Below are positions 381 through 22,625 of a stretch of DNA of 32,000 nt, one piece after another. The notes under the pieces are model-generated. The model saw nothing but the letters and a program-made list of their open reading frames with translations. It did no database searches and was not told where the DNA came from. Where the stretch lies: contig NZ_OMOH01000001.1 of assembly GCF_900289195.1 (NCBI RefSeq), forward strand, positions 298,706-330,705. The letters run 5' to 3'. The DNA is from Propionibacterium ruminifibrarum. GTDB taxonomy: Bacteria; Actinomycetota; Actinomycetes; Propionibacteriales; Propionibacteriaceae. The position numbers and the translations under genes are program-made. The stretch's first letter is position 1. Every line of letters begins with the position of its first letter.

Positions 381-387
381 GGTGGCA

Positions 388-409
388 ACCTTAGGACCGA
401 CCACCGGCA
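388..409 (-). promoter_or_regulatory. RecA-NDp (PafBC-type) DNA-damage promoter motif for uvrD2, leaderless geometry
   Basis: The minus strand reads TGCCGGTG-gtcggtcc-TAAGGT, then 7 nt (tgccacc), then the ATG at 380. There is one mismatch to the consensus tTGTCRgtg-8nt-TAnnnT. Confidence 0.6.
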
Positions 410-477
410 CGTTCATGTCCTGCCGGCGGTTGTCCACACCGGGCCGGCAGCGCCCACGTGGACACGGCGGCCCCAGG

Positions 478-499
478 TGTCGGTGCCGCTGCCTAAGGT
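478..499 (+). promoter_or_regulatory. RecA-NDp (PafBC-type) DNA-damage promoter motif for recCBD, leaderless geometry
   Basis: The plus strand reads TGTCGGTG-ccgctgcc-TAAGGT, then 7 nt (gttgacc), then the ATG at 507. This is a full match to tTGTCRgtg-8nt-TAnnnT. Confidence 0.65.
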
Positions 500-506
500 G
501 TTGACC

Positions 507-3500: not shown

Positions 3501-3800
3501 ACCGGGCTCGGCGAGTTCCTGCCGATGCCCCCTGACACCTGCTTCGACTACGCCCGGCGGGCGAACCGGAACCCGCGCAGCGCCGCGGCCTTCCTGACGC
3601 GTGACTACGCCCGAGAACTCGAGTTCTCCCCGGTGCTGCGCTGGGTGGGGGCCTCCTGGCGCGACATCGAGGCCATCGGCTCTGAACCCGAGGACCCGCT
3701 CACCACCTCACCCAGCCGGTTCGTCAACCTCGCCCGCTGGTTCTACGGCCCGGTGGCGGCTTCCCTGCGCACGTGGGATCCTGGGGCCCGCCATGACTGA
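507..3800 (+). CDS. recC: Exodeoxyribonuclease V gamma subunit RecC (1097 aa)
   Basis: ORF 78..3800 trimmed to ATG 507, because the 78-506 extension is antisense to uvrD2. RecC-like blocks are [25 protein letters not shown] and [53 protein letters not shown] (compare E. coli RecC HSCHSPQREVEVLHD..DPTLTPRDIIVM). It lies directly upstream of recB and recD. Confidence 0.9.
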
Positions 3801-7194: not shown

Positions 7195-8999
7195 GTGTCG
7201 CCGACGGTCGTGTCGTCTCGGCCAGGGACGACCTCGCCCGGTTCAACGAGGCAGGTCTGCTCGAGGCACCCGACATCCACACCGCCCAGCTGATCGCCCG
7301 CACAGCCGGTGAGCGCAACCCGATGGCGCTGCTCGGCGCCGCGCTCGCCATGCGTGCGCTGCGCGCCGGCTCGGTCTGCCTGCCGATCCGGCAGGTCCAC
7401 CGTCTGGCCCAGTTCTTCGTCCGCGACGCCGACGCCCAGGCCGGCATCGCACCCGAGCTCGACGCGCTCCCCTGGCCCGGGGCCGACGAGTGGCTCGACG
7501 CGCTGGCCGGCTCGCCTCTCGTGGGCGACGAGCACGCCCCGGCCAACGAGCATCCGCTCCGTCTCGTGGACGAGGCCCTCTACCTCGAACGGCACTGGCA
7601 GGACCAGGAATCGATCACGCGGATCCTGCTCGGCAGGTGCGGGCCCTTCCCCGGTGTCGACGGGCAGGTGCTCGAACAGAGCCTGGCCTGGGGATCGGGG
7701 CGGTCCGACCGGCGCGACGAGGCCCAGCGCCGCGCGGTGCGCACGGCCATCGGCGCCCGCACGACGGTCATCTGCGGCGGCCCGGGTACCGGCAAGACGA
7801 CGACGATCTCTCGCGTGGTCGCCGCCGCAAGGGATCAGGCCGAGGCCTCCGGGACGCCGCTGCGCATCGCGCTGGCGGCGCCCACGGGCAAGGCCGCCGC
7901 CCGGCTGAGTGAGTCGCTCGAGGAGCACGCCCGCGAGTTCGGCGGCCGGGCTCCGGCCGCGACGACCCTGCACCGCCTGCTCGGGGTCCGCCCCGACCGT
8001 GCCCCTCGCTTCGGCCCCGGCCATCGGCTCCCCTTCGACATGGTGATCGTCGACGAGATGTCGATGGTCTCCCTCGAACTCATGGCACGCCTGCTCGAGG
8101 CGCTCGGCCCGGACACCCGCCTGGTCATGGTGGGCGACCCGGATCAGCTGACCCCGGTCGACGCCGGCGCCGTGCTCGCCGACATCACCGCGGCGGGACT
8201 GCCCGGACCGGAACCGGGCCTGCCGGGCGTCGTCGTCCTCGATCACGGCTACCGTTTCACGAGCGGCATCTCCGACATCGCCCGGGCGATCAGGGACGGC
8301 GACCCGGACCGCACCCTTGAGCTGCTGGCCGGCACGGACCGTGTCGAGTTCCATGACCAGGACGCCGCCGAACTCGATCTGGAGGCGACGCTTTCGCTGC
8401 GCACGGCGCTCGTCGACCAGGCGCTCGCCACGACACGGGCCGCCCGGGAGGGCCGTGCGGAGGCGGCCACCGAGGCGCTCGGGGCCCACCGCCTGCTCTG
8501 CGCGCACCGCACCGGCCCGTACGGCGTCACCACGTGGGGTGCCGCGGCTGAACGCCTGCAACGCGCCGCAGCCGGTCAGCTCGGCTCGGGCGCGTGGTAC
8601 GACGGCAGGCCGCTGCTGGCCACCAGGAACCTCCCCGAGCTGGGCATCAGCAATGGGGACACCGGCGTCGTCATCACGACGGACCGGGGCAGGCGCGCGG
8701 CGATGAGCAACCACCGCACCTACCCGGCCTACGTGCTGGAGGACGTCGAGACGATGTACGCCATGACGGTGCACAAGTCCCAGGGGAGCCAGTTCGACAA
8801 CGTCACTCTCGTCCTGCCCTCGCCCGACTCGCCCCTGCTCACGAGAAGTCTCCTCTACACGGCCGTGACGAGGGCCAGGACCGGTGTGCGCATCATCGGC
8901 CCGGCGGCCTCGGTCCGGGTCGCCGTCACCACGGAGGCGCAACGGGCGTCGGGGCTGACCGCGCGACTGTCGAGAGCCCCCGGGTGGCGCGGCCGCTGA
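7191..8999 (+). CDS. recD: Exodeoxyribonuclease V alpha subunit RecD (602 aa)
   Basis: GTG 7191 overlaps the recB stop (GTGA). Motifs are Walker A ICGGPGTGKTTTI, MVIVDEMSMV, VGDPDQLTPV, AMTVHKSQGSQFDNV and LLYTAVTRAR. Confidence 0.92.
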   Translation: MSVADGRVVSARDDLARFNEAGLLEAPDIHTAQLIARTAGERNPMALLGAALAMRALRAGSVCLPIRQVHRLAQFFVRDADAQAGIAPELDALPWPGADEWLDALAGSPLVGDEHAPANEHPLRLVDEALYLERHWQDQESITRILLGRCGPFPGVDGQVLEQSLAWGSGRSDRRDEAQRRAVRTAIGARTTVICGGPGTGKTTTISRVVAAARDQAEASGTPLRIALAAPTGKAAARLSESLEEHAREFGGRAPAATTLHRLLGVRPDRAPRFGPGHRLPFDMVIVDEMSMVSLELMARLLEALGPDTRLVMVGDPDQLTPVDAGAVLADITAAGLPGPEPGLPGVVVLDHGYRFTSGISDIARAIRDGDPDRTLELLAGTDRVEFHDQDAAELDLEATLSLRTALVDQALATTRAAREGRAEAATEALGAHRLLCAHRTGPYGVTTWGAAAERLQRAAAGQLGSGAWYDGRPLLATRNLPELGISNGDTGVVITTDRGRRAAMSNHRTYPAYVLEDVETMYAMTVHKSQGSQFDNVTLVLPSPDSPLLTRSLLYTAVTRARTGVRIIGPAASVRVAVTTEAQRASGLTARLSRAPGWRGR

Positions 9000-9010
9000 C
9001 CAGGGGCCGT

Positions 9011-9919
9011 TCAGCCCTCGGGGCCGGGCAGCCGGTCCTCCAGCCATGCCCGGATGAGGTGGTGGCCGACCGAGGCACCGGGCGGCAGCACGAGTGACCC
9101 GGCCTCGGTGAGGCGGGTCACCTCGGTGCGGGTGTACCAGCCGCCCCACGAGAGCTCCTGGCCGTCGACCCTGCCCGGGGAGTCGCTGCGCGCGACGAAA
9201 CTGAGCATGAGCGAACGCGGCATGGGCCACGGCTGGCTGCCGAGGTAGCGCAGGGCGGCGATGCGGAGTCTGGCCTCCTCGGCGATCTCGCGGTGAACGG
9301 CCTGCTCCACGGTCTCGCCGGCCTCGACGAAACCCGCCAGCACCGAGACGCGACCCTGCTCCCAGGTGCCCTGGTGCGCGAGGAAGAGTCGGTTGTCATG
9401 ATCGAGCACCGCGCAGATGATGGCGGGATCGGTGCGGGGGAAGGTCTCGTAGCCGCACTGGGAGCACACCGCGGCGAACCCGCCCCGCGTGCGCAGCAGC
9501 TCTCCCCCGCAGCGGACGCAGCGGCGGGTCGTGCGGACCCAGTTGAGGATGGCCTGGGCGGCGCTGGCGACCTCGCGTTCGCCCGGGGTGAGCCTGGCGC
9601 TGCGAAGCACCGCCGTGTAGGGACCGGCGTCCCGCCGGGCGAACCACGGGTGACCGTCGAAGCGACCGAGGAAGACGTCGTCATCGCCGGGGACATCACC
9701 GTCGGCCGCGGTGACGGGCCGGCCGAAGGGATCATCGTTGAAGCGACCCTCGTCGTCGAGGCAGATGAGGCGGGCCCCCGGCTCGCGCCAGGCCTGCTCG
9801 ATCAGCTGCGCGTCCTCACGGACGCCGGAGGCATGGTCCAGGCTCGGCGGACCGCCCCACGCCGCGAGATCCCACATGTACGGGTCGCGGCCGGCATCGA
9901 GATCCTGGCTGAGTCTCAT
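9011..9919 (-). CDS. nudC: NADH pyrophosphatase / NAD-cap decapping Nudix hydrolase NudC (302 aa)
   Basis: Zn ribbon CVRCGGELLRTRGGFAAVCSQCG, Nudix box GFVEAGETVEQAVHREIAEEARL, and NudC-type SQPWPMPRSLMLSF. ATG 9919 is preferred because the track start 9928 is a TTG. It begins 26 nt after the adnB stop, so it is probably co-transcribed. Confidence 0.88.
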   Translation of the reverse strand: MRLSQDLDAGRDPYMWDLAAWGGPPSLDHASGVREDAQLIEQAWREPGARLICLDDEGRFNDDPFGRPVTAADGDVPGDDDVFLGRFDGHPWFARRDAGPYTAVLRSARLTPGEREVASAAQAILNWVRTTRRCVRCGGELLRTRGGFAAVCSQCGYETFPRTDPAIICAVLDHDNRLFLAHQGTWEQGRVSVLAGFVEAGETVEQAVHREIAEEARLRIAALRYLGSQPWPMPRSLMLSFVARSDSPGRVDGQELSWGGWYTRTEVTRLTEAGSLVLPPGASVGHHLIRAWLEDRLPGPEG

Positions 9920-9945
9920 GGGAGTCAAAACTAACGCACAGCCGA

Positions 9946-12900
9946 TCAGCCCCCAAGGGCCCCGCTCCGGGTGACCCCGACGGACCCCGGCCCCTGGGAG
10001 CGCAGCCCGGCGACCATCTGTCGCAGCCCCTCCCGGCCGACGAGCCGGGCTGGACGTTCATCGGTACCGCTCATGACGTGGTGGAAGACGGCATCAACGC
10101 GCTCGGGCGGGACACCGACGATCTCGGACCAGGCGAGTCGGTAGAGGGCGAGTTGGAGGGCGTCACCAGGACCGTCGTAGGTCTTCCAGTCGACGACCCT
10201 GAAGTCGTGGTCCGGGTCGTCGTCGAGTGTGAAGACCGCGTCGATGCGGCCGCGGATCTGCTGGCCGTCGACCATGAGGACGAAGGCCTCCTCGATGGCG
10301 CACGGGGTGCGTTCGGCGTAGGGGCCGGCCTCGAAACGCTCCTTGAGCCTGTCAAGCCTGGCACGCGCCGGTTCGGCGCCCGCAGCGGCGTGGGCGCCGA
10401 ACCGGCCGTCGTCGGCGAGGTCATCCACACCTCCTGGCTGCAGCATCCGGTCGTCGATGAGCGGGCTGCCCGCCCGACGGAAACGGGCCTCGACCCACTC
10501 GTGGAAACTCGTGCCGACACCGGCGCCGACACTCGCCCGGCGCGGCATCGGCCTGGCGAGGGTGGCCATGAACTCGGCGCGGTCCTGCTGGGACTGGATG
10601 AGTGCCGTTGCCGACAGCGAGCCGGGCACCGGGACCTGGCCATCCCCGTCGGCGCGGCGGGCGGCCTGGGCGAGGAGCAGCTCTGATTCACGCGCCCAGC
10701 GGTCGACCGTGGCCTGGTCGTCGAGGTCGAGGGGCTCGTCACTGGTGAACTCCCCGGACTCCTCGTCCTGCTCCGACCGGGCACGGCCGAGGACGAAGGC
10801 GGCCAGCGCCTCGAGACGCCTCTGGGCCTGTTCGTCACCCGTGCTGGGCCAGCTGATGCGCAGGTGGCCGTCGCCGAGCGGGTTCTCGCCGGTGACGGTC
10901 TGCGGCTCAGCCACCACGTCCTGCGCGCTCTCGGCGAGAACCGCGTAGTAGGGCGAGATCCCACGAGGCCTGGAACGGCCGGGCTCCCAGACGTGGCTGG
11001 TCGCGACGAGGTCATGCCTGGCGCGGGTGATCGCCACATAGGCCAGCCGGTCCTCGGCGAAACCGGCCGCCGACTTGAGTTCCTCGGCATGGGCACGGAT
11101 GCCGTCACGCGAGGCCTCCGACAGCGCCGGCCGGCTGCCGGCGTCGCCACGGAGCGGACCGGGAAGGAGCCTGGCCGAGCTCACCCAGTTGTCCGCGCGG
11201 TGATCCGGGAAGACCCCGTCGACCAGCCACGGGAGATAGACGCGGTCCCATTCGAGGCCCTTCGCGCGGTGGACGGTGAGCAGTTTGACCGAGTCGCCGG
11301 CGGAGACGACCGCCTGCTCGATGCCGTTCTCGTGGTCGATCTGCACGTCGAGATGGGCGAGGAAGGCGCTCAGTCCCGCCTGCGGATCGACATCGGTGAA
11401 CTCCGTCACCACGTCGAGGAAACGCCGCACCTGATCGCGTCTGCCCTGGCGGAAGAACGCCGGGTCCCCCTCGAGTTCGGCGTCGACGCCGGCCAGCAGG
11501 CAGATCCGCCGCACGAGATCGGCGAGTGGGGCATCCATCCCGCGCCGTAGCCGCGCGAATTCCGTGGCGAAGCGGCGCAGCCGGTGCCCGCCCTGCTCGG
11601 AGATCCCGGGGATCTGCCCATCGAGGGCGTCGAGAAGGCATACCGGTGGCCGGACGAGCCCCTCGACGAAGGCCGCCATGGCGCCGTCACCGTCATCGCC
11701 GGCCGGATCGCGCCCCGGGGCCGCCCCGGCCGGGGATTCCTGCTCCGCGGCTGTGGAGCGAGCCGCCTCGGCGAGACGTGTCAAGTCGCTCGCCCCGATC
11801 CGCCAGCGCCGCGAGGTGAGCAGCTCGACGAGCGCGGGGTTGTTCGTCTCGTCGTCGAGCAGCCGCAGTGTGGCGACGATCTCACGCACCGGGCTCAACG
11901 AGACCAGGCCGCCGATGCCGACGATCTCGACCGGCACGTCGGCTTCGACCAGTTCCTCGTAGATGCGTCCTGTCGAGGTGTTCGTTCGACAGAGGATGGC
12001 CATGCCGGCCCACCGGCCCGGGCCTCCGTGCGCGGCGACATCGGCGGCGAGCCAGGCCATCTCCTCGTCGACATCGGTGAACCGCCCCACCGTGACACGG
12101 CCGGGCTCGGTCCCTTCGGGGGCGCGCAGCCGCTGACCCGTCGGGTCGGTGACCGGCATGGCGGGGTCCTCGTCGAGCCGGGCCGCCACCTCGTTGGCGC
12201 ACCGCAGGATCACCGGGCCGCTCCGACGGTTGACGGTCAGCGAGTAGACCTCTGCCGGGCTGTTGTCGCTCCGCCGGAAGGTGCGGGGGAATTCGGCGAT
12301 GGTGTTCGCGGCGGCCCCGCGCCAGCCGTAGATGCCCTGGCGGGGGTCGCCGACCGCCATGACCGGATGACCGAGGCCGTGCTCGGTGTCGGGGCCGGAG
12401 AACAGCCCGGAGAGCATCATCGTCTGGGCCGCGGAGGTGTCCTGGTACTCGTCGAGCAGGACGGCGCGGAACCTTTGGCGCAGCGCATCGGAGGCCTGGG
12501 GCACCCGGAGGCTGATCGTGGTGGCCCGGGCCATCTGGTCCCCGAAGTCGCCGACGGCGAGCTGTTTCTTGCGCATCCGGTAGGCGCGCACCAGCCCGAG
12601 CAGCTCGAGCCGGGTGCGGGCCACGTCGATGGCGTGGGTGACATCCCGGTAGGGCCTGCCCCTGTGGAGCGGGGCCTCACGCAACCCGGTGATGAGTGAG
12701 CCGGTGAAGGCCTCGAGCCGGTCGGGGTCGACGAGATGGCTGCTCATCTCGTTGTCGAGCGTGATGAGGTGGTCCACCAGGGTCGCCGGTGAGATGTCGG
12801 TGAGGTACTCCCAGCCGCCCTCGGCGGCCGAGACGACCTGCCCGGCGAGCCGGTAGCGCATCGGCTCGGCGAGCAGCCGTTCGATCGGGTCCTCGCCGAT

Positions 12901-13269
12901 GCGCGGGGCGTACTCGGCGACCAGGTGTCCGGCGAAGGCGTCGTAGGTCATGACGAGCTGGGCCTGCATGTCGTGCAGGGTCTCCTCGTCGACGACTCCG
13001 GACCGCTCCAGGGCCGCACTGATGCGGGCCGACAACTCGCCGGCTGCCTTGCGGGTGAACGTCAGCCCGAGCACCTGGTCGGCCCGCACGGCGCCCGTCC
13101 CGACGAGCCAGACGACGCGCGCCGCCATGACGGTGGTCTTGCCCGAGCCCGCACCGGCCATGACGACGCCGGGCTCGAGGGGAGCGGTGATGGCGGCCAG
13201 CTGCTCCTCGGAGAAGGGGATGCCCAGGGCCTCACACAGCTGGCCGGGATCGTGCAGTGGTGCGGTCAT
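9946..13269 (-). CDS. adnB: AdnB-like helicase-nuclease subunit (UvrD-like motor + C-terminal RecB-type nuclease, 1107 aa)
   Basis: ORF 9946..14136 trimmed to ATG 13269, which overlaps the adnA stop (ATGA). Motifs are MAGAGSGKTTVMAARV, LLDEYQDTSAAQ, VGDPRQGIYGWRGA and TVHRAKGLEWDRV. The nuclease has RGRIDAVF..FRVVDWKTY..LQLALYRLAW. Confidence 0.88.
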   Translation of the reverse strand: MTAPLHDPGQLCEALGIPFSEEQLAAITAPLEPGVVMAGAGSGKTTVMAARVVWLVGTGAVRADQVLGLTFTRKAAGELSARISAALERSGVVDEETLHDMQAQLVMTYDAFAGHLVAEYAPRIGEDPIERLLAEPMRYRLAGQVVSAAEGGWEYLTDISPATLVDHLITLDNEMSSHLVDPDRLEAFTGSLITGLREAPLHRGRPYRDVTHAIDVARTRLELLGLVRAYRMRKKQLAVGDFGDQMARATTISLRVPQASDALRQRFRAVLLDEYQDTSAAQTMMLSGLFSGPDTEHGLGHPVMAVGDPRQGIYGWRGAAANTIAEFPRTFRRSDNSPAEVYSLTVNRRSGPVILRCANEVAARLDEDPAMPVTDPTGQRLRAPEGTEPGRVTVGRFTDVDEEMAWLAADVAAHGGPGRWAGMAILCRTNTSTGRIYEELVEADVPVEIVGIGGLVSLSPVREIVATLRLLDDETNNPALVELLTSRRWRIGASDLTRLAEAARSTAAEQESPAGAAPGRDPAGDDGDGAMAAFVEGLVRPPVCLLDALDGQIPGISEQGGHRLRRFATEFARLRRGMDAPLADLVRRICLLAGVDAELEGDPAFFRQGRRDQVRRFLDVVTEFTDVDPQAGLSAFLAHLDVQIDHENGIEQAVVSAGDSVKLLTVHRAKGLEWDRVYLPWLVDGVFPDHRADNWVSSARLLPGPLRGDAGSRPALSEASRDGIRAHAEELKSAAGFAEDRLAYVAITRARHDLVATSHVWEPGRSRPRGISPYYAVLAESAQDVVAEPQTVTGENPLGDGHLRISWPSTGDEQAQRRLEALAAFVLGRARSEQDEESGEFTSDEPLDLDDQATVDRWARESELLLAQAARRADGDGQVPVPGSLSATALIQSQQDRAEFMATLARPMPRRASVGAGVGTSFHEWVEARFRRAGSPLIDDRMLQPGGVDDLADDGRFGAHAAAGAEPARARLDRLKERFEAGPYAERTPCAIEEAFVLMVDGQQIRGRIDAVFTLDDDPDHDFRVVDWKTYDGPGDALQLALYRLAWSEIVGVPPERVDAVFHHVMSGTDERPARLVGREGLRQMVAGLRSQGPGSVGVTRSGALGG

Positions 13270-16200
13270 CTGGAGTCCTCCCGGGTCCAGAGCGGACATC
13301 CGCTCCGGTGGGTGCAGGTGCGGCACAGGTCGCCCTGGACTGCCGTCCAGTCGCCGCTGGCGGCGTGTGTCAGGGCCTGCGTCATGGCGTCGTGGATCCA
13401 TGTGGGTCCGCCGCCCTCGGGCTGCTCGGCCAGCGGCGGGTAGGGGTGGTCCTCGATACTCGGCTGAGTCAGCACCTTCGGCTGACCGGGTTCTTTCGCG
13501 CTCTGGGGGACACGGAGATGGACGAGTTCCGCGCCGCCGAGGTCGGGACGTGGCCCTGTCAGATCGGCGCAGGCGCCCTCGGCGACAGCCAGCTGATACG
13601 CACCGAGTTGCAGATGGGCGGCGAGCTGCTTCTGGGTGGGCACGCGCCGGCCGGTCTTGAAGTCGACGACGTGAACGCGGCCGGTGTCCTGCTCGCGTTC
13701 GAGGCGGTCGATGGTGCCGCGCAGGAGGACGATGCCGCCCGGCAGGTGGAAACGGTGCGTGATGGGCACCTCGACCCCGACGACCTCGCGTCCACGCTGG
13801 GCGGACGACCACGCCCCCAGACGATCGAGCATCTCGTGGGTCGCATCGCGCTGGGCCCGGCTCTGCCATGCGATGTCGAAGCCGATGAGGTCCCAGTACT
13901 CGTCGACCTGCTCGTGCTGACGCGTGATGCTCCATCCGTGCACGACGGCGTTCTCGGCCATCTTGTGGACGAGTGAACCGATCGCCGCCTGGGGGCCGGC
14001 CGCCTCCGGGGCACCGGCCCGGGAGTCGAGGAACCAGCGCCGGGGGCACCTGGCCAGCTTCTCGAGGCCGGTGACGCTCACGGTCAGTTCCGGACGTGCC
14101 CGGGACGCCGCCCCGCTGAGCCCTCCCAGCCCCCACCAGGTGGAGGCATCGGCGGCCTGGACGAGTCGTCGCCCGTGCGCCGAACGCGCGCCGGCGAGTT
14201 CGGCGATGCGCTCGGCGGCCCTGCGGCGCAGGGCCTGTGGCCGGGCGGGGTCGAGAGCGGTCCGGCGCAGTTCGCCGACGAGCTCGTCGAGGGTGCTGTT
14301 GCGTCGTGTCCCGGGGCGGGGCTCCTGGCGGGGTTCGACACCGAGTTCGGCGATGAACCGGGAGGGTACGCCACCCTCGGAGCCCTCACCGGCCACCGCT
14401 GTGACGAGCAGCGTCCGCGTGGCACGGCTGACGGCCAGGGCGAACAGCCGACGTTCCTGCCGCACCCATTCCCGGGCCGCCTCGAGCGCGTCACGACCGG
14501 TCTGGTCCGTGCCGGCCGGATCACCGATCATCTCGGCAGACAGGAGTCCCTCACCGCCCCGCTGCCCTGGCCAGGTGCCCTCGACGAGATCGACGAGGGC
14601 CACGTGGGCCCACTGACGGCCCTTGACCCGGTGTGCGGTGATGACCTGGACTCCCCTGCCGTGGGGGTCGGACTCCCGGGCCCGGTCACCGGGGATCTCC
14701 TGGCCGTTGATCTCGGCGACGAGGGTGCGCAGGCCCCGGTCCCCCTCCAGCCTGTCGTGTCGGGCGGCCAGGTCGAACAGGGCGCACAGGGCATCCAGAT
14801 CTCGTTGGGCCGGCGCAGAGTTCTCGTCCTGGCCCAGGGCCTCGGCGCGAAGCCGCGCCGGCCAGTCGGTGCCCTGCCACAGGCTCCACAGCACCTCGTA
14901 GACGCCCGAACCGCGTCTGAGGCCGCGGGCCGCAGTGCCGAGAAGTGCCCCCAACGCCGTCAGCGCAGCGGCCTCGTCCCCGGCCGACGTCGGGACCGGA
15001 TGGTCCTGGCCGGTGGCCACCGGGCCGGCAGTCGTCCGGGCCTGGCCCCCAGCGCCCGCCCCGCCGCCAGAGCCCATCGCTGTGACGGCGGACCGACCGA
15101 TCAGGTCGAGCAGCGACTCATCCGAGCCGTCGGTGCCGCGCCGGAGGCGGCGACGGAGCAGCCGCAGCGTCCTGGGCTCCACCGGGCACAGTGGGCCGCC
15201 CACGAGGGAGAGGACGCGTGGGGAGCCGAACCGCCCTAGACTGGCCAGTTCGAGGCAGCACTCGGCGGCCTCGACCAGGTGCTGGACGCATCGCTGCTCA
15301 CCCAGGGCGATGTCGTCCCCGTCGACGTCGACGGGGACGCCGAGGCCCTCCAGCGCCCTCGCGACGAGCGCCAGCTGGCTCTTCCCGGATCTGCCGACGA
15401 CCGCCATGTCGGACCAGGCCGTGCCCTGCATGTGGTGGTCCCGCAGCCACCGGGCAACGGCATCCAGCTGGGCCGTCGCGGACGGGTGGAGCAGGGCGTC
15501 GACACGGGGCTCGTCGTCCCCGGGGGAACGGCTGCCGCGAGGGTCCACATCGGTGTCTGCCGACCACGCCCGTTCCTGCACCGTCACCGCCTCGCACCCC
15601 GGTTCGGCCGGATTGTGCGCGAGCACCGCCCGGAGCGCGGCCCGCACCTCGCGTACACCGCTGTGGTCGCCCGCGAGTCCGATGATCCTCGGCTCCTCGA
15701 GGCCCGGCGCGGTGAACCGGCGCGGGAAGTCGGCGACCGCTCGTGCGTCAGCACCGCGGAAGGCGAAGACGCGGGTGCTGGGGTCGGCCGTGGCGATCAC
15801 GGGGACACCCAGTTCGTGCACGTGCGCGAGCAGCCCGATCTGCGACCTGTCGAGTTCGGCGAACTCGTCGGCGTAGACGCCCTGCACACGCGAGGAGACA
15901 CCGGCCGCGGCTCGTTCGTCGAGCAACAGGAGCCGTGTCCGGTGGACGAGTTCGGCATAGTCCCAGGCGCCCTGACCGTCGAGCACGTCGAGGTACTTCT
16001 CGAAGAAGACCCCCAGTCCGACCCACTGGGAGCGGCCGGTGCGTTCGCCCAGCTCGATGAGGTCATCGGGGTCGAGCCCGTACTGACGAGCCCGGGCCAT
16101 ACCGGTACGGACCTCCTGGGTGAAGGCACGTGTCCGCAGGGCCGGGCGGACGTCCGGCGGCCACAACTGCTCACCGGCGCCGGCGAGGAGTTCGCGCACC

Positions 16201-16559
16201 TGCATCTCCTGCTCGGGCCCGGTCAGGACTCGGGGAATCCCGCCGGAATCGTCGAACGACCCGTAGGCGGACTGGAGGGCCAGGCACCAGCCCGGGACCG
16301 TGGTCATGACCGGCGCCCGCTGCGTGCGCCCGATCCGCGCGATGATCTCGGCGCGGAGCCGATGGGCCGCGGGCCGGGACCAGGTGAGCACGACGAGCCG
16401 GTCGAGGCTGCTCCCTGACTCGACGGCGGCGGCGACGGCTTCGACTAGCGCAGTGCTCTTGCCGGTGCGCGGGCCGCCCACCCCCAGGACAGCGGCGTGC
16501 GGCCTGGCGGCCGCTTCGAGGAAAGCGCGCTGCCACCGATCCATCCGCTGCCCAGCCAT
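13266..16559 (-). CDS. adnA: AdnA-like helicase-nuclease subunit (1097 aa)
   Basis: ORF 13266..16718 trimmed to ATG 16559 (MAGQRMDRWQRAF..). Motifs are Walker A GVGGPRTGKSTALV, VYADEFAELD and TAHRVKGRQWAHV. The nuclease has RGTIDRLE..VHVVDFKTGR..LQLGAYQLAV. There is a four-Cys AddB-like signature (ARCPRRW ... CRTCTHRSGC, that is C-x2-C-x5-C). Confidence 0.85.
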   Translation of the reverse strand: MAGQRMDRWQRAFLEAAARPHAAVLGVGGPRTGKSTALVEAVAAAVESGSSLDRLVVLTWSRPAAHRLRAEIIARIGRTQRAPVMTTVPGWCLALQSAYGSFDDSGGIPRVLTGPEQEMQVRELLAGAGEQLWPPDVRPALRTRAFTQEVRTGMARARQYGLDPDDLIELGERTGRSQWVGLGVFFEKYLDVLDGQGAWDYAELVHRTRLLLLDERAAAGVSSRVQGVYADEFAELDRSQIGLLAHVHELGVPVIATADPSTRVFAFRGADARAVADFPRRFTAPGLEEPRIIGLAGDHSGVREVRAALRAVLAHNPAEPGCEAVTVQERAWSADTDVDPRGSRSPGDDEPRVDALLHPSATAQLDAVARWLRDHHMQGTAWSDMAVVGRSGKSQLALVARALEGLGVPVDVDGDDIALGEQRCVQHLVEAAECCLELASLGRFGSPRVLSLVGGPLCPVEPRTLRLLRRRLRRGTDGSDESLLDLIGRSAVTAMGSGGGAGAGGQARTTAGPVATGQDHPVPTSAGDEAAALTALGALLGTAARGLRRGSGVYEVLWSLWQGTDWPARLRAEALGQDENSAPAQRDLDALCALFDLAARHDRLEGDRGLRTLVAEINGQEIPGDRARESDPHGRGVQVITAHRVKGRQWAHVALVDLVEGTWPGQRGGEGLLSAEMIGDPAGTDQTGRDALEAAREWVRQERRLFALAVSRATRTLLVTAVAGEGSEGGVPSRFIAELGVEPRQEPRPGTRRNSTLDELVGELRRTALDPARPQALRRRAAERIAELAGARSAHGRRLVQAADASTWWGLGGLSGAASRARPELTVSVTGLEKLARCPRRWFLDSRAGAPEAAGPQAAIGSLVHKMAENAVVHGWSITRQHEQVDEYWDLIGFDIAWQSRAQRDATHEMLDRLGAWSSAQRGREVVGVEVPITHRFHLPGGIVLLRGTIDRLEREQDTGRVHVVDFKTGRRVPTQKQLAAHLQLGAYQLAVAEGACADLTGPRPDLGGAELVHLRVPQSAKEPGQPKVLTQPSIEDHPYPPLAEQPEGGGPTWIHDAMTQALTHAASGDWTAVQGDLCRTCTHRSGCPLWTREDSR

Positions 16560-16566
16560 GGCGACA

Positions 16567-16588
16567 ATGCAAGCACAGACCACCGACG
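16567..16588 (-). promoter_or_regulatory. Possible RecA-NDp-like promoter for adnA-adnB-nudC (degenerate)
   Basis: The minus strand reads CGTCGGTG-gtctgtgc-TTGCAT, then 7 nt (tgtcgcc), then ATG 16559. This is the same motif/8/hexamer/7/ATG geometry as recC and uvrD2, but the hexamer lacks the A at position 2. Confidence 0.4.
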
Positions 16589-16925
16589 TTTTCCCGCGGA
16601 CGGCGCCGGGCCGTCCGCCACGGCACCGGCCCGCGCCCACCCCGTGATCGTCCGGCCCGTGGGAGCCCTCGCCGCCGCATGACCGCGCGCCGAGCCTCCA
16701 GACACCACTGTTGATCATTCAAACGATCTCCGGCAGCCAGCGGCTACGGGCGAAAAGTCGACATCAAGATTCACCCACTGCGTGCCTGTGACATTGCCGT
16801 GACGGGGAGCGATGTTATTCGCTGGGTCATGCTGAATGCGTTGCCGGCAGGTGATACCAGCAGGTCTCCCTCACCTAGGTACTCGAAAAATGATCGACCC
16901 ATCAATGGATACCGTGGCCGTCGAG

Positions 16926-16934
16926 TGTTATGTT
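16926..16934 (+). promoter_or_regulatory. Extended -10 promoter element TGtTATGTT (copy A)
   Basis: TGn + TATGTT lies 48 nt upstream of the AAGGAGG-ATG at 16982. The identical 9-mer is conserved in copy B inside a block that is 59/65 identical. Confidence 0.55.
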
Positions 16935-16959
16935 CGGTTTTAACCGAGCTTCCGGAGAG

Positions 16960-16980
16960 CCGGGTTCAAGGAGGAACCGG
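16960..16980 (+). promoter_or_regulatory. Leader hairpin presenting or occluding the Shine-Dalgarno sequence (copy A)
   Basis: CCGgGTTC-AAGGAG-GAACCGG forms a 7-bp stem with one bulged nucleotide and a 6-nt loop that is the SD core. It ends 1 nt before the ATG. Confidence 0.4.
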
Positions 16981-16981
16981 T

Positions 16982-17170
16982 ATGTCCGTGGCCCTGTATC
17001 AAGAATAGTGGCACCCAGAATTGTTCGAGCCGGCAACAGCGGACCGTATCGCGATCGCGAATCATGCCGCCAGGGGCTGATGAATCCCGCGGGGATCGTC
17101 GATGCCACGGGGATGGGATCACCGCCCATCGAGGCGCCACCCTGCGCATCAGCCGCTGCGCGCCGACAGA
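16982..17170 (+). pseudogene. Truncated, disrupted 5' stub of an OYE2-like enoate-reductase paralogue
   Basis: ATG TCC GTG GCC CTG TAT CAA GAA TAG reads MSVALYQE*, then PELFEPATADRIAIANHAARG*. OYE2 reads [29 protein letters not shown]. An extra segment of about 15 nt carries the in-frame TAG. Nucleotide similarity to OYE2 continues, with frame breaks, to about 17170. The end is approximate. Confidence 0.7.
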
Positions 17171-17350
17171 AGAAGTCGGGACCGAGCACACCCGACGCGA
17201 TCCCTACAGCCCGACCACACCACAGTCATCATCCACGATCAACGAAAACACGCTCGCCAGACAAATGAGCACAACCGAACCCAGGAGCCATCAGCGCCAC
17301 TGCCAGCCAACGGCGCCATGCGTCAATCACAGCGCGAGGGGAAGAACGCA

Positions 17351-19273
17351 ATGCTAGCCAATCTATTCAGCTCATACGAACTCAAAGGAAAGACCCTCAG
17401 GAATCGAACCGTGGTCGCTCCCATGGTCATGAACCTGTGCAATTCCGATGGTACGTGCACCGAACGCTTCATCGCCTATCATGAGGCGAAGGCGCAAGGC
17501 GGCTTCGGGATGATCATCACCGAAGACTTCGCCGTCATGCCGCATGCGAAGGGGTTCGTCGGAGTACCCGGTCTCTGGGCGGACAGTCAAGTCGAGGGCT
17601 TCAAGGAGTTCACGGACCGGATTCATCGGTTGGGCGCCGTCGTCGTTGCGCAAATCTATCATTGCGGACGTCAAACCACGGAGGCAATCAGCGGAGAACA
17701 ACCTTGGGCGCCATCGGCCAACCCGTGTCCGCTCAGCTGGGAGATTCCGCACGAGATGACAACTGAGGAGATTGACGAGGTGACGGAAGCCTTTGGTGAT
17801 TGCGCCAGGCGCGCCGAGGCCGCGGGATTTGACGGAGTCGAATTGCACGGTGCGCATGGCTATCTCCTGGCCGAGTTCACCTCGCCCTATTCGAACCAAC
17901 GGACGGATGAGTACGGCGGTGGCCTTGAGAACCGAGTTCGATTCGCCGAAGAAGTCATCCGTAATGTGCGCGCCAAGGTCAGTCCAGAATTCATCGTGGG
18001 CTACCGAATTTCCGGCGACGAATACGTATCAGGAGGCCGCACCATTGAAGACACCAAGACGATCGTGCCGTACCTGGAGAAAGCGGGTATCGACTACGTC
18101 CATGTCAGTGCTGGCTGTTATGGCGCGTTGGGCGCCCTCTGCCCCTCCATGTACACGCGACATGCCTGGATCGCGGACGATGCGAGAGAGGTCAAGCAGG
18201 TGACAAACCTGCCCGTCATATCCGTGGGCCGATACAACGACATGCGCATCGCGGATGAGGTGCTGGCCTGTGGCAAGGCCGATCTCATCGCATTCGGCCG
18301 TGCCTCGCTAGCCGACCCGGCAGCACCCAACAAGGCAAGGGCGGGTGATTTTGAAGACATCATCACGTGCATTGGATGTGAGCAGGGTTGCCTTGGTGAA
18401 ATTTACAAGCAGGAGCCGGGCGGCTGCATCCTGAATCCTTTCACAGCACATGAGTACAACACTCCGGTGACGGTAAGAGCCGAGCACCCCAAGAAGGTCA
18501 TGGTGGTGGGGGCCGGGCCCGCGGGAGCGGCGGCCGCCATTGAAGCAGCCAAGGCGGGGCATCAGGTTGAGGTCTATGAGCGAAGAAAATGGGCCGGCGG
18601 ACAGTTCCGGCTCGGCGCGGTTCCGCCCAGCAAGGGTGAGATAGCCTCGTTCATCCGCTGGCAGGTGCACCAGCTGGAGAAAATGGGCGTCCCGATTCAT
18701 TGGGCAACAGAAGTCACCAGAGCACTTGTCGAGGAGAAGCGACCGGACGTCGTCGTGATTGCCACAGGCGCCAAACCCATCATCCCCAAGACCATTCCCG
18801 GGATCGGGAGTGCACATGTCACGACCGCCCATGACGTCCTGGCGGGTGAGACGCTCGCCGGGGAGCGAAATGTCGTCATCGGCGGTGGTTCCGTGGGCTG
18901 TGAGACAGCGAATTTCATCGCCGCCAGCCACAAATCGGTGACAGTCGTGGAGATGTTGGACGACATCGCCGTCGACGAAGAGGCCCCCACCAGGCAGGAT
19001 CTCCTCGCCGACATGGAGGGCCACCGCGTCCGGGTGCTCACCGAGACAACCGTGCAAGAGATCAAGCAGGACTGTGTCGTACTCGAGGGGAAGTCCGCCG
19101 GCACGGTCAAGGCCGACAAGGTGATCCTGGCCATCGGTTCCACGCCCGTGACCGCCTTGGCAGATGAGCTCGGCGACCTGGATTGCCGGGTCGAGCTGAT
19201 CGGCGATGCCGCGCAAACCGGCCTGGCGGGCAAGGCGATCAGGGCGGGCTTTGAGCTCGGCAGGTCACTGTGA
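17351..19273 (+). CDS. NADH:flavin oxidoreductase / 2,4-dienoyl-CoA-reductase-family Fe-S flavoenzyme (OYE barrel + 4Fe-4S + FAD/NAD(P) domain, 640 aa)
   Basis: ORF 17102..19273 trimmed to ATG 17351, preceded by GAGGGGAAG. Motifs are TVVAPMV, IYHCGRQ and ELHGAHGYLLAEFTSPYSNQRTDEYGG. The Fe-S motif is CIGCEQGCLGEIYKQEPGGC (C-x2-C-x3-C-x11-C). Rossmann motifs are VMVVGAGPAGAAAAIEAAKAGHQVEVYE and VVIGGGSVGCE. GC is visibly lower and A/T-ending codons more common than in neighbouring genes. Confidence 0.88.
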   Translation: MLANLFSSYELKGKTLRNRTVVAPMVMNLCNSDGTCTERFIAYHEAKAQGGFGMIITEDFAVMPHAKGFVGVPGLWADSQVEGFKEFTDRIHRLGAVVVAQIYHCGRQTTEAISGEQPWAPSANPCPLSWEIPHEMTTEEIDEVTEAFGDCARRAEAAGFDGVELHGAHGYLLAEFTSPYSNQRTDEYGGGLENRVRFAEEVIRNVRAKVSPEFIVGYRISGDEYVSGGRTIEDTKTIVPYLEKAGIDYVHVSAGCYGALGALCPSMYTRHAWIADDAREVKQVTNLPVISVGRYNDMRIADEVLACGKADLIAFGRASLADPAAPNKARAGDFEDIITCIGCEQGCLGEIYKQEPGGCILNPFTAHEYNTPVTVRAEHPKKVMVVGAGPAGAAAAIEAAKAGHQVEVYERRKWAGGQFRLGAVPPSKGEIASFIRWQVHQLEKMGVPIHWATEVTRALVEEKRPDVVVIATGAKPIIPKTIPGIGSAHVTTAHDVLAGETLAGERNVVIGGGSVGCETANFIAASHKSVTVVEMLDDIAVDEEAPTRQDLLADMEGHRVRVLTETTVQEIKQDCVVLEGKSAGTVKADKVILAIGSTPVTALADELGDLDCRVELIGDAAQTGLAGKAIRAGFELGRSL

Positions 19274-19463
19274 TGACGTCACCCAGCCGTTCCCTCGGAA
19301 GGCGGCAAGAACCCCCGGCCCCGCGGGACCTCACCATTGACCGGGTTCGCGTCAACGGTCGAGACCGGTGACTTGGACCGGTTCACCGGCGCGAGCATCG
19401 CGTCCTGTCCGGGACTGGCGCCCAGCGAGCACTCCAGCGGCGAGGGCATGCTTTTCCCAACAA

Positions 19464-19507
19464 GATCTGGCCGTTTCCTCTCTTCTTCGGCCTGAAACGG
19501 CCAGATC
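19464..19507. repeat. Perfect 14-bp inverted repeat (GATCTGGCCGTTTC / GAAACGGCCAGATC) with 16-nt spacer; candidate terminator or protein-binding site
   Basis: Left arm 19464-19477, right arm 19494-19507. On the minus strand the hairpin is followed by TTGTTGGG. Confidence 0.6.
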
Positions 19508-19739
19508 CTGTGGGATTTGGCATACCTGCCCACACGCCACACCCCGGCACCGGCAATGAACAGGTGCCTTCGCGCAACCAGCACGGGGGCACCCGACCCT
19601 GCCACGAGGCAGGGACACCACACATCAGCCGAGCAGGTTTGTGCCCGAGCAGCCGGTCACCCCGGCTCATGTCCTGGACGGGTCGGACGGGTGGGCCCTG
19701 CTCGCCATGAGCGTGCGGACCGCCCCCGGGCAGGCCAGG

Positions 19740-19761
19740 ACTGTCCGTCACGACACCGACC
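19740..19761 (-). promoter_or_regulatory. RecA-NDp-like motif facing the non-coding spacer (speculative)
   Basis: The minus strand reads GGTCGGTG-tcgtgacg-GACAGT. The hexamer has A2 and T6. The homologous position in copy A reads GGCCGGTG-ccgtggcg-GACGGC, which has no usable -10. Confidence 0.3.
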
Positions 19762-20062
19762 CGCGCCTGCGCCCGCCCCGTGATCGTCCGGCGCGCTGAC
19801 CCCCCCCCGCGCGCATGACCGCGCTTCGAGTCTCACGGTCACCACCGTTGATCATTCAATACCGCCCGATAATCCGTGAACGACATCGATGATTCGACAT
19901 CAAGACTGTTCCACGGCTCATCGATGAAATCGTTGTGACAGGGAATGATGAGCTTCACCAAGGACCAGCGGATGGGGATTTTCGTCGCCCAAGTCATCAG
20001 GATCCCCTAACCTCAATGCCCAGAAAAATGGCCGATAAACCGATGATGTTCTGGACGTCGAG

Positions 20063-20071
20063 TGTTATGTT
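20063..20071 (+). promoter_or_regulatory. Extended -10 promoter element TGtTATGTT (copy B) for OYE2
   Basis: Same 9-mer as copy A, 48 nt upstream of ATG 20119. Confidence 0.55.
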
Positions 20072-20096
20072 CAGCTTTAACCGAGGTTCGGGTGAG

Positions 20097-20117
20097 CCGA
20101 GTTCAAGGAGGAACCGG
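20097..20117 (+). promoter_or_regulatory. Leader hairpin around the Shine-Dalgarno sequence (copy B)
   Basis: CCGaGTTC-AAGGAG-GAACCGG. The only difference from copy A within these 21 nt is the unpaired bulge base (G to A). Confidence 0.4.
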
Positions 20118-20118
20118 T

Positions 20119-22137
20119 ATGTCTGCATCCCTGCATCCAGAGTTGTTCGAGCCCACCACGGTGGGCAGTATCGAGGTGAAGAATCATTTCGCGATGGGGC
20201 CGATGGGCCCCTTGGGGTTCGCCGATGCCGAGGGCGGGTGGAACCAGCGCGGGATCGAGTTCTACGCGACGCGGGCTCGCGGCGGGATCGGCTTGATCAT
20301 CACGGGCGTGTGCCAGGTGACGAATCCCGCCGACGCCGTCCCGCCGGGCATCTTCCCCAATCCGACCCAGTCCCCGGGGGTCTTCCTCACCACGAGCCGA
20401 GACCTCACCGAACGTGTTCACGGCTATGACGCGAAGATCGTCCTGCAGGCGGGAGCGGGCTTCGGCCGGGTGCTTTTCCCGGGTGTCCTCGGCGGCCGCA
20501 CGCCGGTGGCCCCGTCGGCGATCCCCTACCGATGGGATCCCACCATCACCTGCCGTGAAATGACGGTGGAGGAGATCAAGGGCGTCGTCGCGCAATTCCG
20601 GATTGTCGGAATGGTAGCACGCGAGGCCGGATTTGACGGCATTCAGGTGCACGCGATCCACGAGGGCTATCTGCTCGACCAATTCGCGATCTCACTCTTC
20701 AACCACCGCACTGATGAATACGGTGGCCCGCTGGAGAATCGGCTGCGTTTCGCCCGTGAAGTGGTCGAGGCCATTCATGAATCAGCCGGCGATGACTTTC
20801 CCGTCCAGCTCCGCTTCTCCCCGAAGTCGATGATCAAGGCCCTCGGGGTGGGCGCCATGCCGGGCGAGAGTTTCAGCGAATTGGGACGCGACATCGACGA
20901 GGGCATCGAAGCGGCCCGTCTTCTCGAGTCCTACGGCTACGAGGCCCTCGACGTCGATGTCGGCTCCTACGACGCCTGGTACTGGAGTCACCCGCCGATG
21001 TACCAGGACAAGGGCCTGTACGTCCCCTACGCGCGCCAGCTGCACGAGGCCTGCCCCGACATCCCGCTGATCGTCGCCGGACGCATGGATGATCCCGAGC
21101 TGGCGGCCGCGGCCACGGCCGACGGCACGGCGACGCTGGTCTCGCTCGCCCGGCCGACACTCGCGGACCCGGACATCGTCAACAAGCTCCAGCGCGGGCG
21201 ACGCGACCTGGTCCGCCCCTGCATCTCGTGCCAGGAGGGCTGCATCGGTCGCATCGAGAAGTACTCGTCCCTGCGCTGCGCAGTCAACCCGCTCGCGGCC
21301 CGTGAGATCGAACGTCCGATGCCGCAGGCCACCGATCGCACACGGATGCGCGTCCTCATCGTCGGCGGCGGCGTTGCGGGGATGGAGGCCGCACGGGTTC
21401 TGGCCGAGCGTGGCCACATCCCGGTGCTCCACGAGGCGTCCGACCGGCTCGGAGGGGTCGTCATCGCAGGCGGCCAACCCTCGTTCAAACGGGATGACCT
21501 CGCCCTGATCGCCTGGTACGAGCGTCAACTCGAGAATCTCGGGGTCGAGGTGCACCTGGGCTCACGAGTCGACGCCGACCTGATCCGTCGGTCCGGAGCC
21601 GACCACGTCCTCGTCGCAACGGGTTCGACGCCGCAGTCCCTCGATCTCGGCGAGGGCATACCGGTCGTCGAGGCAACGGACGCCCTGCTCGACCCGGGCT
21701 CCCTGGGCGACCGGGTCGCCATCGTGGGCGGAGGCCTCACCGGCTGCGAACTGGCCATCTCGCTGCGCGAACGCGGCACCGAGGTCACGATCGTCGAGGC
21801 GCTGTCGGACGTCCTGGAGAAGAACGCGCCCCTGTGCATGGCGAACCACGTGATGCTTCACGATCTGGTCCCGTACCGCGGGGTCGAGGTACTGACCGGG
21901 GCCCGCGCGAACCGCGTCAATGACGAGGGCCTGCTCGTCACCGTCGACGGTGCGGAAAGACTGGTGCCGGCGACGACGGTCGTCACCGCAATCGGCTACA
22001 CACCCCGACACGAGCTGCTGTCCGAAGTGAGAGCAGCAGGCATCCCATGCCACGTCGTGGGTGACGCGCGACGGTGCGCCAACATCATGTACGCGATCTG
22101 GGACGCCTTCGAGGTCGCCAGCCAGCTGGAGAAGTAG
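20119..22137 (+). CDS. 2-enoate-reductase-like Fe-S flavoenzyme (OYE barrel + 4Fe-4S + FAD/NAD(P) domain, 672 aa)
   Basis: ATG 20119 follows AAGGAGG. Motifs are [26 protein letters not shown] (a form I associate with clostridial 2-enoate reductases), [42 protein letters not shown] and [12 protein letters not shown]. Confidence 0.88.
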
Positions 22138-22149
22138 CTGCCCGGCCCT

Positions 22150-22182
22150 CCGGCGCGGCGTCCACCGGAGCCGTCGCGCCGG
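22150..22182 (+). terminator. GC-rich hairpin after OYE2 (possible terminator, no U-tract)
   Basis: CCGGCGCGGCG (22150-22160) pairs with CGTCGCGCCGG (22172-22182). The stem is 11 bp with one mismatch and the loop is 11 nt. Confidence 0.35.
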
Positions 22183-22418
22183 ACATGGCCGATGCGGCCG
22201 GCTCGCCCCATCGAGCGCCCGACCGTGCAGATGACCGGCGGGCGGAGGGGCCGCGACGCCATTCGTCCTTCCCAGTGGGGGCGGGAGTGTGGAAGGATGA
22301 AAGCGCTGTTCACGCCGTAACGGCGACATCATCCCGCCAGTCCCGGAGCCCGTCGATGACGTTCGACGAGACTGGTAGCGGCCCGCCAAGGCCCGGGAGC
22401 AACGATAGGGAGTACCAC

Positions 22419-22625
22419 ATGGCCACTGGAACTGTGAAGTGGTTCAACGCGGAGAAGGGCTACGGTTTCATCGCTGTCGACGGTGCGGGGGACGATGTCT
22501 TCGTCCACTACTCCGCCATCGAGACCAGCGGTTTCCGCTCGCTCGACGAGGGCCAGAGGGTCGAGTTCGACGTCGCACAGAGCCCCAAGGGTCAGCAGGC
22601 CGAGCACGTGAAGCCGCTCAGTTGA
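22419..22625 (+). CDS. cspA: Cold-shock protein CspA family (68 aa)
   Basis: [52 protein letters not shown] contains RNP1 KGYGFI and RNP2 VFVHY. The upstream non-coding region is about 280 nt. Confidence 0.95.

Follow-up and report, generated by a model that had tools for sequence, protein, structure and literature searches.

The locus described here raises the question of how a gene can come to stand behind a second copy of its neighbour's promoter and start region, and whether the DNA unit so formed was gained by one lineage or lost by another. It lies in a window of 32,000 nucleotides from Propionibacterium ruminifibrarum (contig NZ_OMOH01000001.1), a high-GC actinobacterium of the Propionibacteriaceae; "MAG: Propionibacteriaceae bacterium" (MAG, metagenome-assembled genome) is the NCBI label on proteins identical to that of gene A and on proteins 99% identical to that of gene B, the two genes considered below. 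Next to adnA, two copies of a diverged direct repeat (copy A and copy B) bracket a cassette that holds gene A. Copy B leads into gene B, an intact gene of the 2-enoate-reductase type, while copy A leads into a dead stub of a gene of the same type. This arrangement had been noticed in an earlier reading of the sequence (the original prediction), and comparison with related genomes now indicates that the presence or absence of the bracketed unit is due to recombination between the two copies.

The direct repeat and the single-copy state

The diverged repeat proved to be real. In a gapped blastn alignment, 16593-17133 and 19723-20259 are 67.1% identical over 557 columns (E 8.5e-64), and the local alignment score is 159 versus 14.7 +/- 1.6 (maximum 24) for 200 dinucleotide-preserving shuffles. 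In a repeat search, collinear blocks recurred at start-to-start offsets of 3122-3137, a range produced by small indels. The left edge of the repeat is sharp: 17/25 positions match in 16593-16617 (background 7.3; shuffle P ~0.001), and 4/25 do in the block that adjoins it on the left. This, together with a score of 9 for 16400-16596 against 19500-19722 (shuffles 11.2 +/- 1.7), leaves no support for a relic of the adnA start that had been suspected at 19704. The duplicated segment of ~0.54 kb comprises a lineage-specific upstream region of 390 bp (U) and the first ~50 codons of a 2-enoate-reductase-type gene; none of the fetched loci from outside this species complex has U-like DNA. The promoter-leader block counted earlier as 59/65 identical is exact (at offset 3137, 65-nt windows that start at 16919-16922 score best), and the similarity is not confined to it, as the duplication extends into decayed coding sequence.

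The two-copy layout is present in all same-species assemblies examined (at least five samples and four pipelines, at ~99% identity: the window/L001, L088/L089, L090, L091 and L103). The single-copy state was found in the MAG of a sister lineage (GCA_040307615.1, contig JAWRJE010000201.1; hereafter L092), where a single upstream region and gene B lie between adnA and the cold-shock gene, with gene A absent. L092 is 95.3% identical to the window in adnA, 97.7% in gene B and 99.4% downstream. Put together from the window, the single-copy join would read GGGCCGTCCGTCACGACACC, with 16608-16617 joined to 19748-19757. In a three-way alignment, the L092 upstream region does not differ from copy A up to and including 16617 (at 16596-16612, 8/8 informative sites are of the A type) and is copy-B-like from 16618/19748 onward; right of 16695, 132 sites are of the B type and 10 of the A type. 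The breakpoint in this chimera is significant by Fisher's test (P = 8e-13). Since the join lies in register inside diverged direct repeats, it points to recombination between the two copies as the event that made the 3130-bp presence/absence difference. Random insertion between adnA and an intact upstream region was rejected, as it would make the first 20 nt of copy B L092-like, which they are not.

The divergence between copies A and B is ~40% in the unconstrained middle of the repeat versus 2-10% between L092 and the window, which means that the copies separated long before the two lineages did. With so old a split, either L092 lost the unit from a shared two-copy state or the window lineage imported an already diverged homeolog.

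The stub in copy A had been described as a broken gene start of 190 bp. A dead stub it is, with a length of ~150 nt rather than 190 (ATG at 16982, TAG at 17006, end of homology at ~17133). Its 150 nt of decayed coding sequence align codon by codon with gene B and its orthologs, and it has derived bases in common with gene B as compared with two Actinomyces orthologs (81% identical). It also keeps 15 nt (5 codons, 16998-17012) that are found in the Actinomyces orthologs (677 aa; L002/L007 ~10017-10031) and are lost from gene B (at 20134-20135). Since the orthologs have these 15 nt, the apparent insertion in copy A is ancestral and gene B has suffered a deletion. The derived bases and the retained 15 nt together argue that a second B-type gene (B') arose within or very near this lineage, and that the stub is not a piece of an Actinomyces-like gene. 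Beyond ~codon 50, a composite cassette of CA-rich spacer, gene A and IS110-family relic has taken the place of the body of this second gene. No intact B' protein at 88-98% identity was present in a set of 5.8 billion proteins.

Gene B itself is 86-88% identical at the amino acid level to its Actinomyces orthologs, which sit in unrelated contexts. Its 99% homolog is named "2-enoate reductase" by NCBI, and the name OYE2 given to it earlier is better replaced by 2-enoate reductase / FadH / BaiCD-type enzyme, as it is not a classical OYE. The ortholog of Actinomyces ruminis CtC72 (L007 9974-12032) is split into open reading frames (ORFs) at 9974-10612 and 10638-12032, and NCBI annotates only a 482-aa protein there; it is either a frameshifted pseudogene or the product of a sequencing error.

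Some smaller features of the repeat were also recorded. In a hypervariable GC-rich patch of 40 nt (16656-16694; copy B 19791-19830; L092 1584-1625), copy A, copy B and L092 are mutually ~30% different versus 2-10% around it, and copy B has a C-run. The AT-rich middle holds two more exactly shared blocks, GTTGATCATTCAA (16710-16722 / 19848-19860), which contains TTGA-N4-TCAA, and TCGACATCAAGA (16758-16769 / 19894-19905); both are possible candidates for regulator-binding sites. A 52-aa minus-strand ORF in the upstream region of copy B was rejected as spurious, the same ORF being broken by stops in copy A.

Table 1. Features of the locus, in window coordinates.
Feature	Position	Strand	Basis or remark
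AdnA-like helicase-nuclease gene, native left neighbour	13266..16559	-	Pfam UvrD-helicase + PDDEXK_1; 77% aa identity to Propionibacterium australiense protein
Native adnA-proximal block, where homology to empty-site relatives stops	16560..16596	.	88% identity to L082 through 16596, then none; 100% to L092
Repeat copy A: upstream region and dead 5' stub of B-type gene	16593..17133	+	blastn vs copy B
GC-rich left part of repeat	16593-16705		74% identity between copies
AT-rich middle of repeat	16706-16911		60% identity between copies
Promoter-leader core of repeat	16912-16987		86% identity between copies
Coding stub of repeat	16988-17133		64% identity between copies
Conserved promoter-leader core, copy A	16912..16987	+	TGnTATGTT extended -10-like motif 16925-16935; Shine-Dalgarno AAGGAGG; ATG 16982
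Pseudogene stub of B-type 2-enoate reductase	16982..17133	+	reads MSVALYQE*, then frameshifts; aligned with gene B and Actinomyces orthologs
Island with both modules, absent from genus-level relatives	16597..22257 (~)	+	5.66 kb; homology to L082 resumes ~22255-22263
3130-bp unit, present here, absent in L092	16618..19747	+	junction in shared GTCCG at 16613-16617 / 19743-19747
Spacer 1, CA-rich	17134..17350	+	AT skew +0.42, GC skew ~ -0.2
Gene A, Fe-S flavoenzyme, compositionally atypical	17351..19273	+	640 aa; Oxidored_FMN + Pyr_redox_2
IS110-family transposase relic, ~40 codons of Transposase_20 domain	19319..19441	+	PF02371 E 2e-4
Spacer 2	19442-19722		match only in same species
Hairpin, 21-nt arms, 90% complementary, 16 nt between arms	19457..19514	.	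repeat search
Repeat copy B: working upstream region and 5' end of gene B	19723..20259	+	blastn vs copy A
Gene B, 2-enoate-reductase-type Fe-S flavoenzyme	20119..22137	+	672 aa; Pfam + NCBIfam
Cold-shock protein gene, native right neighbour	22419..22625	+	PF00313; syntenic with relatives

Contents of the unit and control of gene A

The DNA between the repeats had been taken to be unrelated to gene B and to lack a recognisable transposase. Neither statement stood, as the unit carries a paralog of the same enzyme family (gene A, only 31% identical to gene B) and the relic of an IS110-family insertion sequence (IS). Both genes encode an OYE-like FMN domain (PF00724; E 1.5e-82 for gene A, 3.8e-55 for gene B) and a FAD/NAD(P) domain (PF07992; E 1.8e-31 and 3.2e-32). 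Between the domains lies a four-cysteine motif of the form C-x2-C-x3-C-x11-C (CIGCEQGCLGEIYKQEPGGC in gene A, to which the gene B counterpart aligns), which, as in FadH, presumably binds a 4Fe-4S cluster. The best NCBIfam match is BaiCD, at 491 and 369 bits versus a cutoff of 825, and both genes remain under every equivalog cutoff. Their predicted products are Fe-S flavoenzymes of the 2-enoate reductase / FadH / BaiCD family.

Gene A has a GC content of 0.61 and a third-codon-position GC content (GC3) of 0.72, versus a GC3 of 0.84-0.92 in its neighbours. Its nearest relatives are metagenomic and 73-80% identical, one being labelled Lachnospiraceae by NCBI, and the closest (80%) is found in a different operon on a contig of ~55% GC. 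Neither an IS relic nor a segment resembling the homeologous upstream region of copy A (U') was found in the contexts of gene A homologs at 80% (L093/L094) and 76% (L104), whose operons differ. In the same set of 5.8 billion proteins no version of gene A at 81-98% identity was present, all members of its 90% cluster being at least 99% identical. The lack of B' at 88-98% and of gene A at 81-98% identity means that no donor lineage is visible. Gene A is a horizontally acquired distant paralog of gene B.

The IS110 relic begins directly after the stop codon of gene A (frame +1) and is truncated on both sides, leaving ~40 codons. The PF02371 match scores 22.1 bits versus a cutoff of 21.3 and is partial (profile positions 9-49 of 87); by tblastn the relic is 60-70% identical to annotated actinobacterial IS110 transposases, including those of Gordonia and Rhodococcus plasmids (E 1e-8). 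It has no N-terminal DEDD catalytic domain, no intact ORF and no recognisable element ends. The hairpin at 19457-19514 has no T tract and could be a terminator or the remnant of an IS end. A search of 16000-20600 gave no curated Rfam family for the conserved leader, the sole match being a sub-threshold, chance-level miRNA at the hairpin (E 0.31). L093, which carries a relative of gene A, is homologous only from ~17333 onward, and both spacers (17134-17350 and 19442-19722) had same-species matches only when searched by blastn against the window and all 100+ fetched loci. The tails of the two modules (19274-19722 and 22138-22420) resemble each other at shuffle level, as does the first tail when compared with the spacer 17134-17350.

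The promoter-leader core of copy A is 65/76 identical to 20049-20124, versus ~60% in the flanks, and the promoter/Shine-Dalgarno core is 86-91% identical overall. It includes exact common blocks of 17 nt (CGTCGAGTGTTATGTTC, with TGnTATGTT, in which TATGTT falls at 16930-16935 and 20067-20072), 10 nt (TTTAACCGAG) and 23 nt (GTTCAAGGAGGAACCGGTATGTC, with the Shine-Dalgarno sequence and start codon). The last 23-27 nt of the core, around the Shine-Dalgarno sequence, are conserved in the Actinomyces orthologs too and are all that these have in common with gene B upstream of the start codon. That the two copies of the core differ at 11 of 76 nt speaks against a recent gene-conversion tract and in favour of purifying selection acting on each of them. 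A pattern for the promoter core (GAGTGTTATGTTCNNNTTTAACCG, 21 specified bases) was searched in JGI metagenomes and returned eight contigs (L095-L102, estuary), which amount to one chance match; all lie inside the coding region of one unrelated organism of 57% GC and are not related loci.

Between copy A and gene A a consensus scan gave no terminator-like site, and gene A possesses a ribosome-binding site of its own. We predict that the copy A promoter probably drives gene A from behind an 8-codon remnant ORF. In this arrangement the promoter, Shine-Dalgarno sequence and start codon of copy A would still be working, the 8-codon remnant would be translated, and transcription would read through into gene A. 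If copy A does drive gene A, both reductase paralogs would respond to the same signals that control gene B.

The island and its neighbours

The window loses homology to the closest relative after 16596 and regains it at ~22255-22263, so the whole 5.66-kb block, gene B included, is an island relative to genus-level relatives. In three lineages of such relatives (L082/L083, L084-L086 and L087, with AdnA 77%, 72% and 67% identical) the distance from adnA to the cold-shock gene is only 160-280 bp. Their adnA is divergent to the adjoining cold-shock gene, which is followed by genes for PP2C, DUF3107, a ferritin-like protein and a DEAD helicase, and the neighbours in the window are the same. The empty site that the original prediction had proposed to look for among relatives takes two forms, as the sister lineage L092 lacks exactly the 3130-bp unit, whereas genus-level relatives lack the whole block with gene B. 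Three states have been seen in all, an empty intergenic site (genus-level relatives), a one-gene state (sister lineage) and a two-gene state (at least five samples). Parsimony between gain and loss is tied, with two sister lineages available and genus-level relatives that have neither module. The central intergenic DNA of the relatives has no similarity to the island edges and is unconserved among the relatives themselves.

On the left of the island, a block of 37 nt (16560-16596) is conserved with P. australiense-like relatives, while the remaining intergenic DNA cannot be aligned. This block probably contains the adnA core promoter, with a CATTGT -10-like hexamer 6 nt before the ATG, a position that suggests a leaderless or short-leader mRNA. 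The adnA start at 16559 is backed by the lengths of homologs (1076-1143 aa) and by conservation; the Logan gene call has an AdnA of 1150 aa that starts at 16718, inside repeat copy A (16560-16718, minus strand). A look-up of the exact AdnA sequence of the window gave no record. By synteny with relatives, recC-recB-recD, a NUDIX gene and adnB lie beside adnA at 78-13269, so that both double-strand-break end-processing systems are clustered beside the island.

Origin of the layout and comparison with known systems

Two origins had been proposed for the layout, a Campbell-type single crossover of a circular DNA and a duplication followed by replacement of the gene body. The chimera found in L092 fits both and the evidence does not separate them; no circular donor, plasmid or integrase function was found. 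Our tentative preference, leaning away from a Campbell-type gain, is that the two-copy state is the older one and that the single-copy sister lineage L092 has lost the unit. The unit of upstream region plus B-type gene would first have been duplicated within this lineage. The body of the proximal B-type gene, from ~codon 50, would then have been replaced by a composite cassette of CA-rich spacer, gene A and IS110-family relic, and the two copies would have diverged in place over a long time. L092 would later have lost the unit via homeologous or short-homology recombination between the direct repeats. We lean to this old duplication with later loss since it needs no unseen donor, since an upstream region of this kind was seen in no other species complex, since no B' or gene A variants of intermediate identity turn up in very large protein sets, and since the heavy decay of the stub and the IS relic agrees with a long stay in place. 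In addition, losing the DNA between neighbouring direct repeats demands less mechanistically than integrating a second molecule through sequence that is 67% identical.

A number of points weigh against this preference. The direction of the event is not polarised by the sequences, as gain and loss would predict the same chimera, and site patterns, GC3 and junction position appear symmetric or uninformative. The junction is only ~20 nt away from the repeat left edge, in 5-nt identity and outside the best identity blocks, a position that is unexpected (roughly 5%) for either direction. The repeat left edge at 16593 is within 4 nt of the end of native homology at 16596, a coincidence that is predicted by two related islets and not by an in-situ segmental duplication. 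The GC-rich stretch of ~100 nt that opens the repeat may itself be native or not, the central intergenic DNA of the relatives being unconserved. No right-hand duplication junction was found, as 19274-19722 matches nothing else in the window or the fetched loci; such a junction, if ever present, has been overwritten. Furthermore, the GC3 of gene A (0.72) is close to that of its 80% relative from a 55% GC genome (0.705), a value that gives no hint of a long stay in a host of 70% GC. With respect to the predicted control of gene A, a consensus scan not designed for actinobacterial promoters found no promoter of the sigma-70 type.

Gain by a Campbell-type crossover is possible, and we consider it less probable than old duplication and loss. 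The ancestor would have had adnA, U and gene B as in L092, the ancestral empty site, and a circle with the homeologous U', the truncated B' stub, gene A and the IS110 relic would have entered through a single in-register crossover ~20 nt inside U. Copy A would then be U(1-20) + U'(21-540) and copy B U'(1-20) + U(21-end), and the reciprocal chimera pattern is exactly as predicted. Divergence is an even ~32-40% in the parts that are not L092-like (19723-19747 and 16618-17133), which would be expected of a single homeologous segment, and gene A is foreign in composition and not ameliorated. The IS110 family moves through circular intermediates, and a relic of it lies inside the unit. The left end of U' coincides with that of the island, as expected if U' ended a related islet. 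However, a donor is lacking, with no U-like sequence seen outside the species complex and no gene A at 81-98% identity. A distant DNA search of a plasmid collection with the whole unit gave generic OYE-domain similarity only, and the unit holds gene A and the IS110 relic, with no gene for replication or integration. Such a gain would also require two molecules to recombine over DNA that is 67% identical, with only 5 identical nt where they join, and the stub and the IS relic would need to have decayed earlier in an unseen donor with the same lineage-specific upstream region.

The near coincidence of the repeat left edge (16593) with the island left edge (16596/16597) would be accommodated if two related islets were inserted successively at the same spot by the adnA core promoter through a targeted mechanism, for example an IS110-type recombinase acting at the islet left end. 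The repeat would then be the common left end of the islets and L092 would have one islet, in keeping with its junction, which falls inside the initial ~25 nt of the repeat and has the same GTCCG on its flanks, and with the presence of an IS110 relic. We nevertheless hold this to be improbable, since neither an intact recombinase nor recognisable element ends or att-like repeats were found, since the modules end on the right in DNA that has nothing in common, and since module B is an upstream region with one gene only. In addition, as the central intergenic DNA of the relatives is unconserved, the "island edge" may mark only the end of the constrained promoter block.

A more speculative proposal, to which we give very little credence, is that the 0.54-kb segment is a reusable landing pad, IS110-type circles bearing the segment letting reductase genes plug in and drop out in register with the resident promoter included. 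If that were true, the locus would be a small array in which homology guides cassettes of paralogous enoate-reductase genes, and not the scar of a single event. It is highly unlikely that the layout is an assembly artefact, whether a mis-join or duplicated contig end that made the two-copy form or a repeat collapse that made the single-copy form. L092 is indeed a short MAG contig (4.4 kb), but its protein is on record on two contigs, the two-copy layout recurs at ~99% identity in assemblies from at least five samples and four pipelines, and collapse is implausible for copies that are 67% identical with no common k-mer >23 nt and 5 nt at the junction. A regulatory motif shared by co-regulated paralogs, through convergence or a short mobile promoter, would account for a promoter-leader core of 65-76 nt being the most conserved part, but it is refuted by homology that spans 540 nt with 150 nt of decayed coding sequence aligned codon by codon, and gene A, only 31% identical to gene B, starts 370 nt downstream of the copy A start codon.

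Whichever way the unit came or went, the locus offers a clean natural example of an acquired gene behind the duplicated promoter and start region of a resident gene. It suggests a route by which a foreign paralog may inherit the regulation of a host gene, and it illustrates that repeats only 67% identical can still define a unit of gain or loss. The annotation is corrected in that the insert is a paralogous Fe-S flavoenzyme gene, the stub is a pseudogene and the enzymes are of the 2-enoate-reductase/FadH type.

Among known systems, the layout resembles Campbell-type integration (insertion-duplication) or its reversal in that the inserted DNA is flanked by direct repeats made up of a promoter and a truncated 5' gene end, one repeat runs into a truncated gene and the other into an intact one, and the empty-site allele is a left/right chimera. 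It differs in that the repeats are homeologous, with an identity of only 67%, that vector-like functions are lacking from the insert, that a circular donor is not known and that the crossover lies ~20 nt from the repeat edge in 5-nt identity; the flanking repeats and chimeric empty site are there, whereas derivation of the insert from a circular replicon is not seen. Tandem duplication with pseudogenisation or replacement is matched by two head-to-tail copies of the upstream region and gene start, one of which has decayed to a stub with a stop and frameshifts that is sister to the adjoining intact gene relative to orthologs in other genera. The copies are thus each other's closest relatives, but the proximal body is replaced by a foreign distant paralog and an IS fragment, and no novel right-to-left junction is recognisable. 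The 5.66-kb accessory redox block, with foreign affinities and conserved housekeeping neighbours that are adjacent in relatives, is like an intergenic genomic islet, although it has no tRNA target, integrase or flanking att repeats and its sole trace of mobility is the 40-codon IS110 relic. That relic shares with IS110 insertion sequences a 40-residue stretch 60-70% identical to the Transposase_20 domain of actinobacterial transposases, but it is a relic and not an element, being truncated on both sides with neither the DEDD domain nor ends. Both enzymes have the FMN domain, four-cysteine motif and FAD/NAD(P) domain of 2-enoate reductase, FadH (2,4-dienoyl-CoA reductase) and BaiCD, but they reach no equivalog cutoff and are only distantly related to each other. 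The locus is not a new kind of system, but a new and well-documented instance of known processes of genome evolution.

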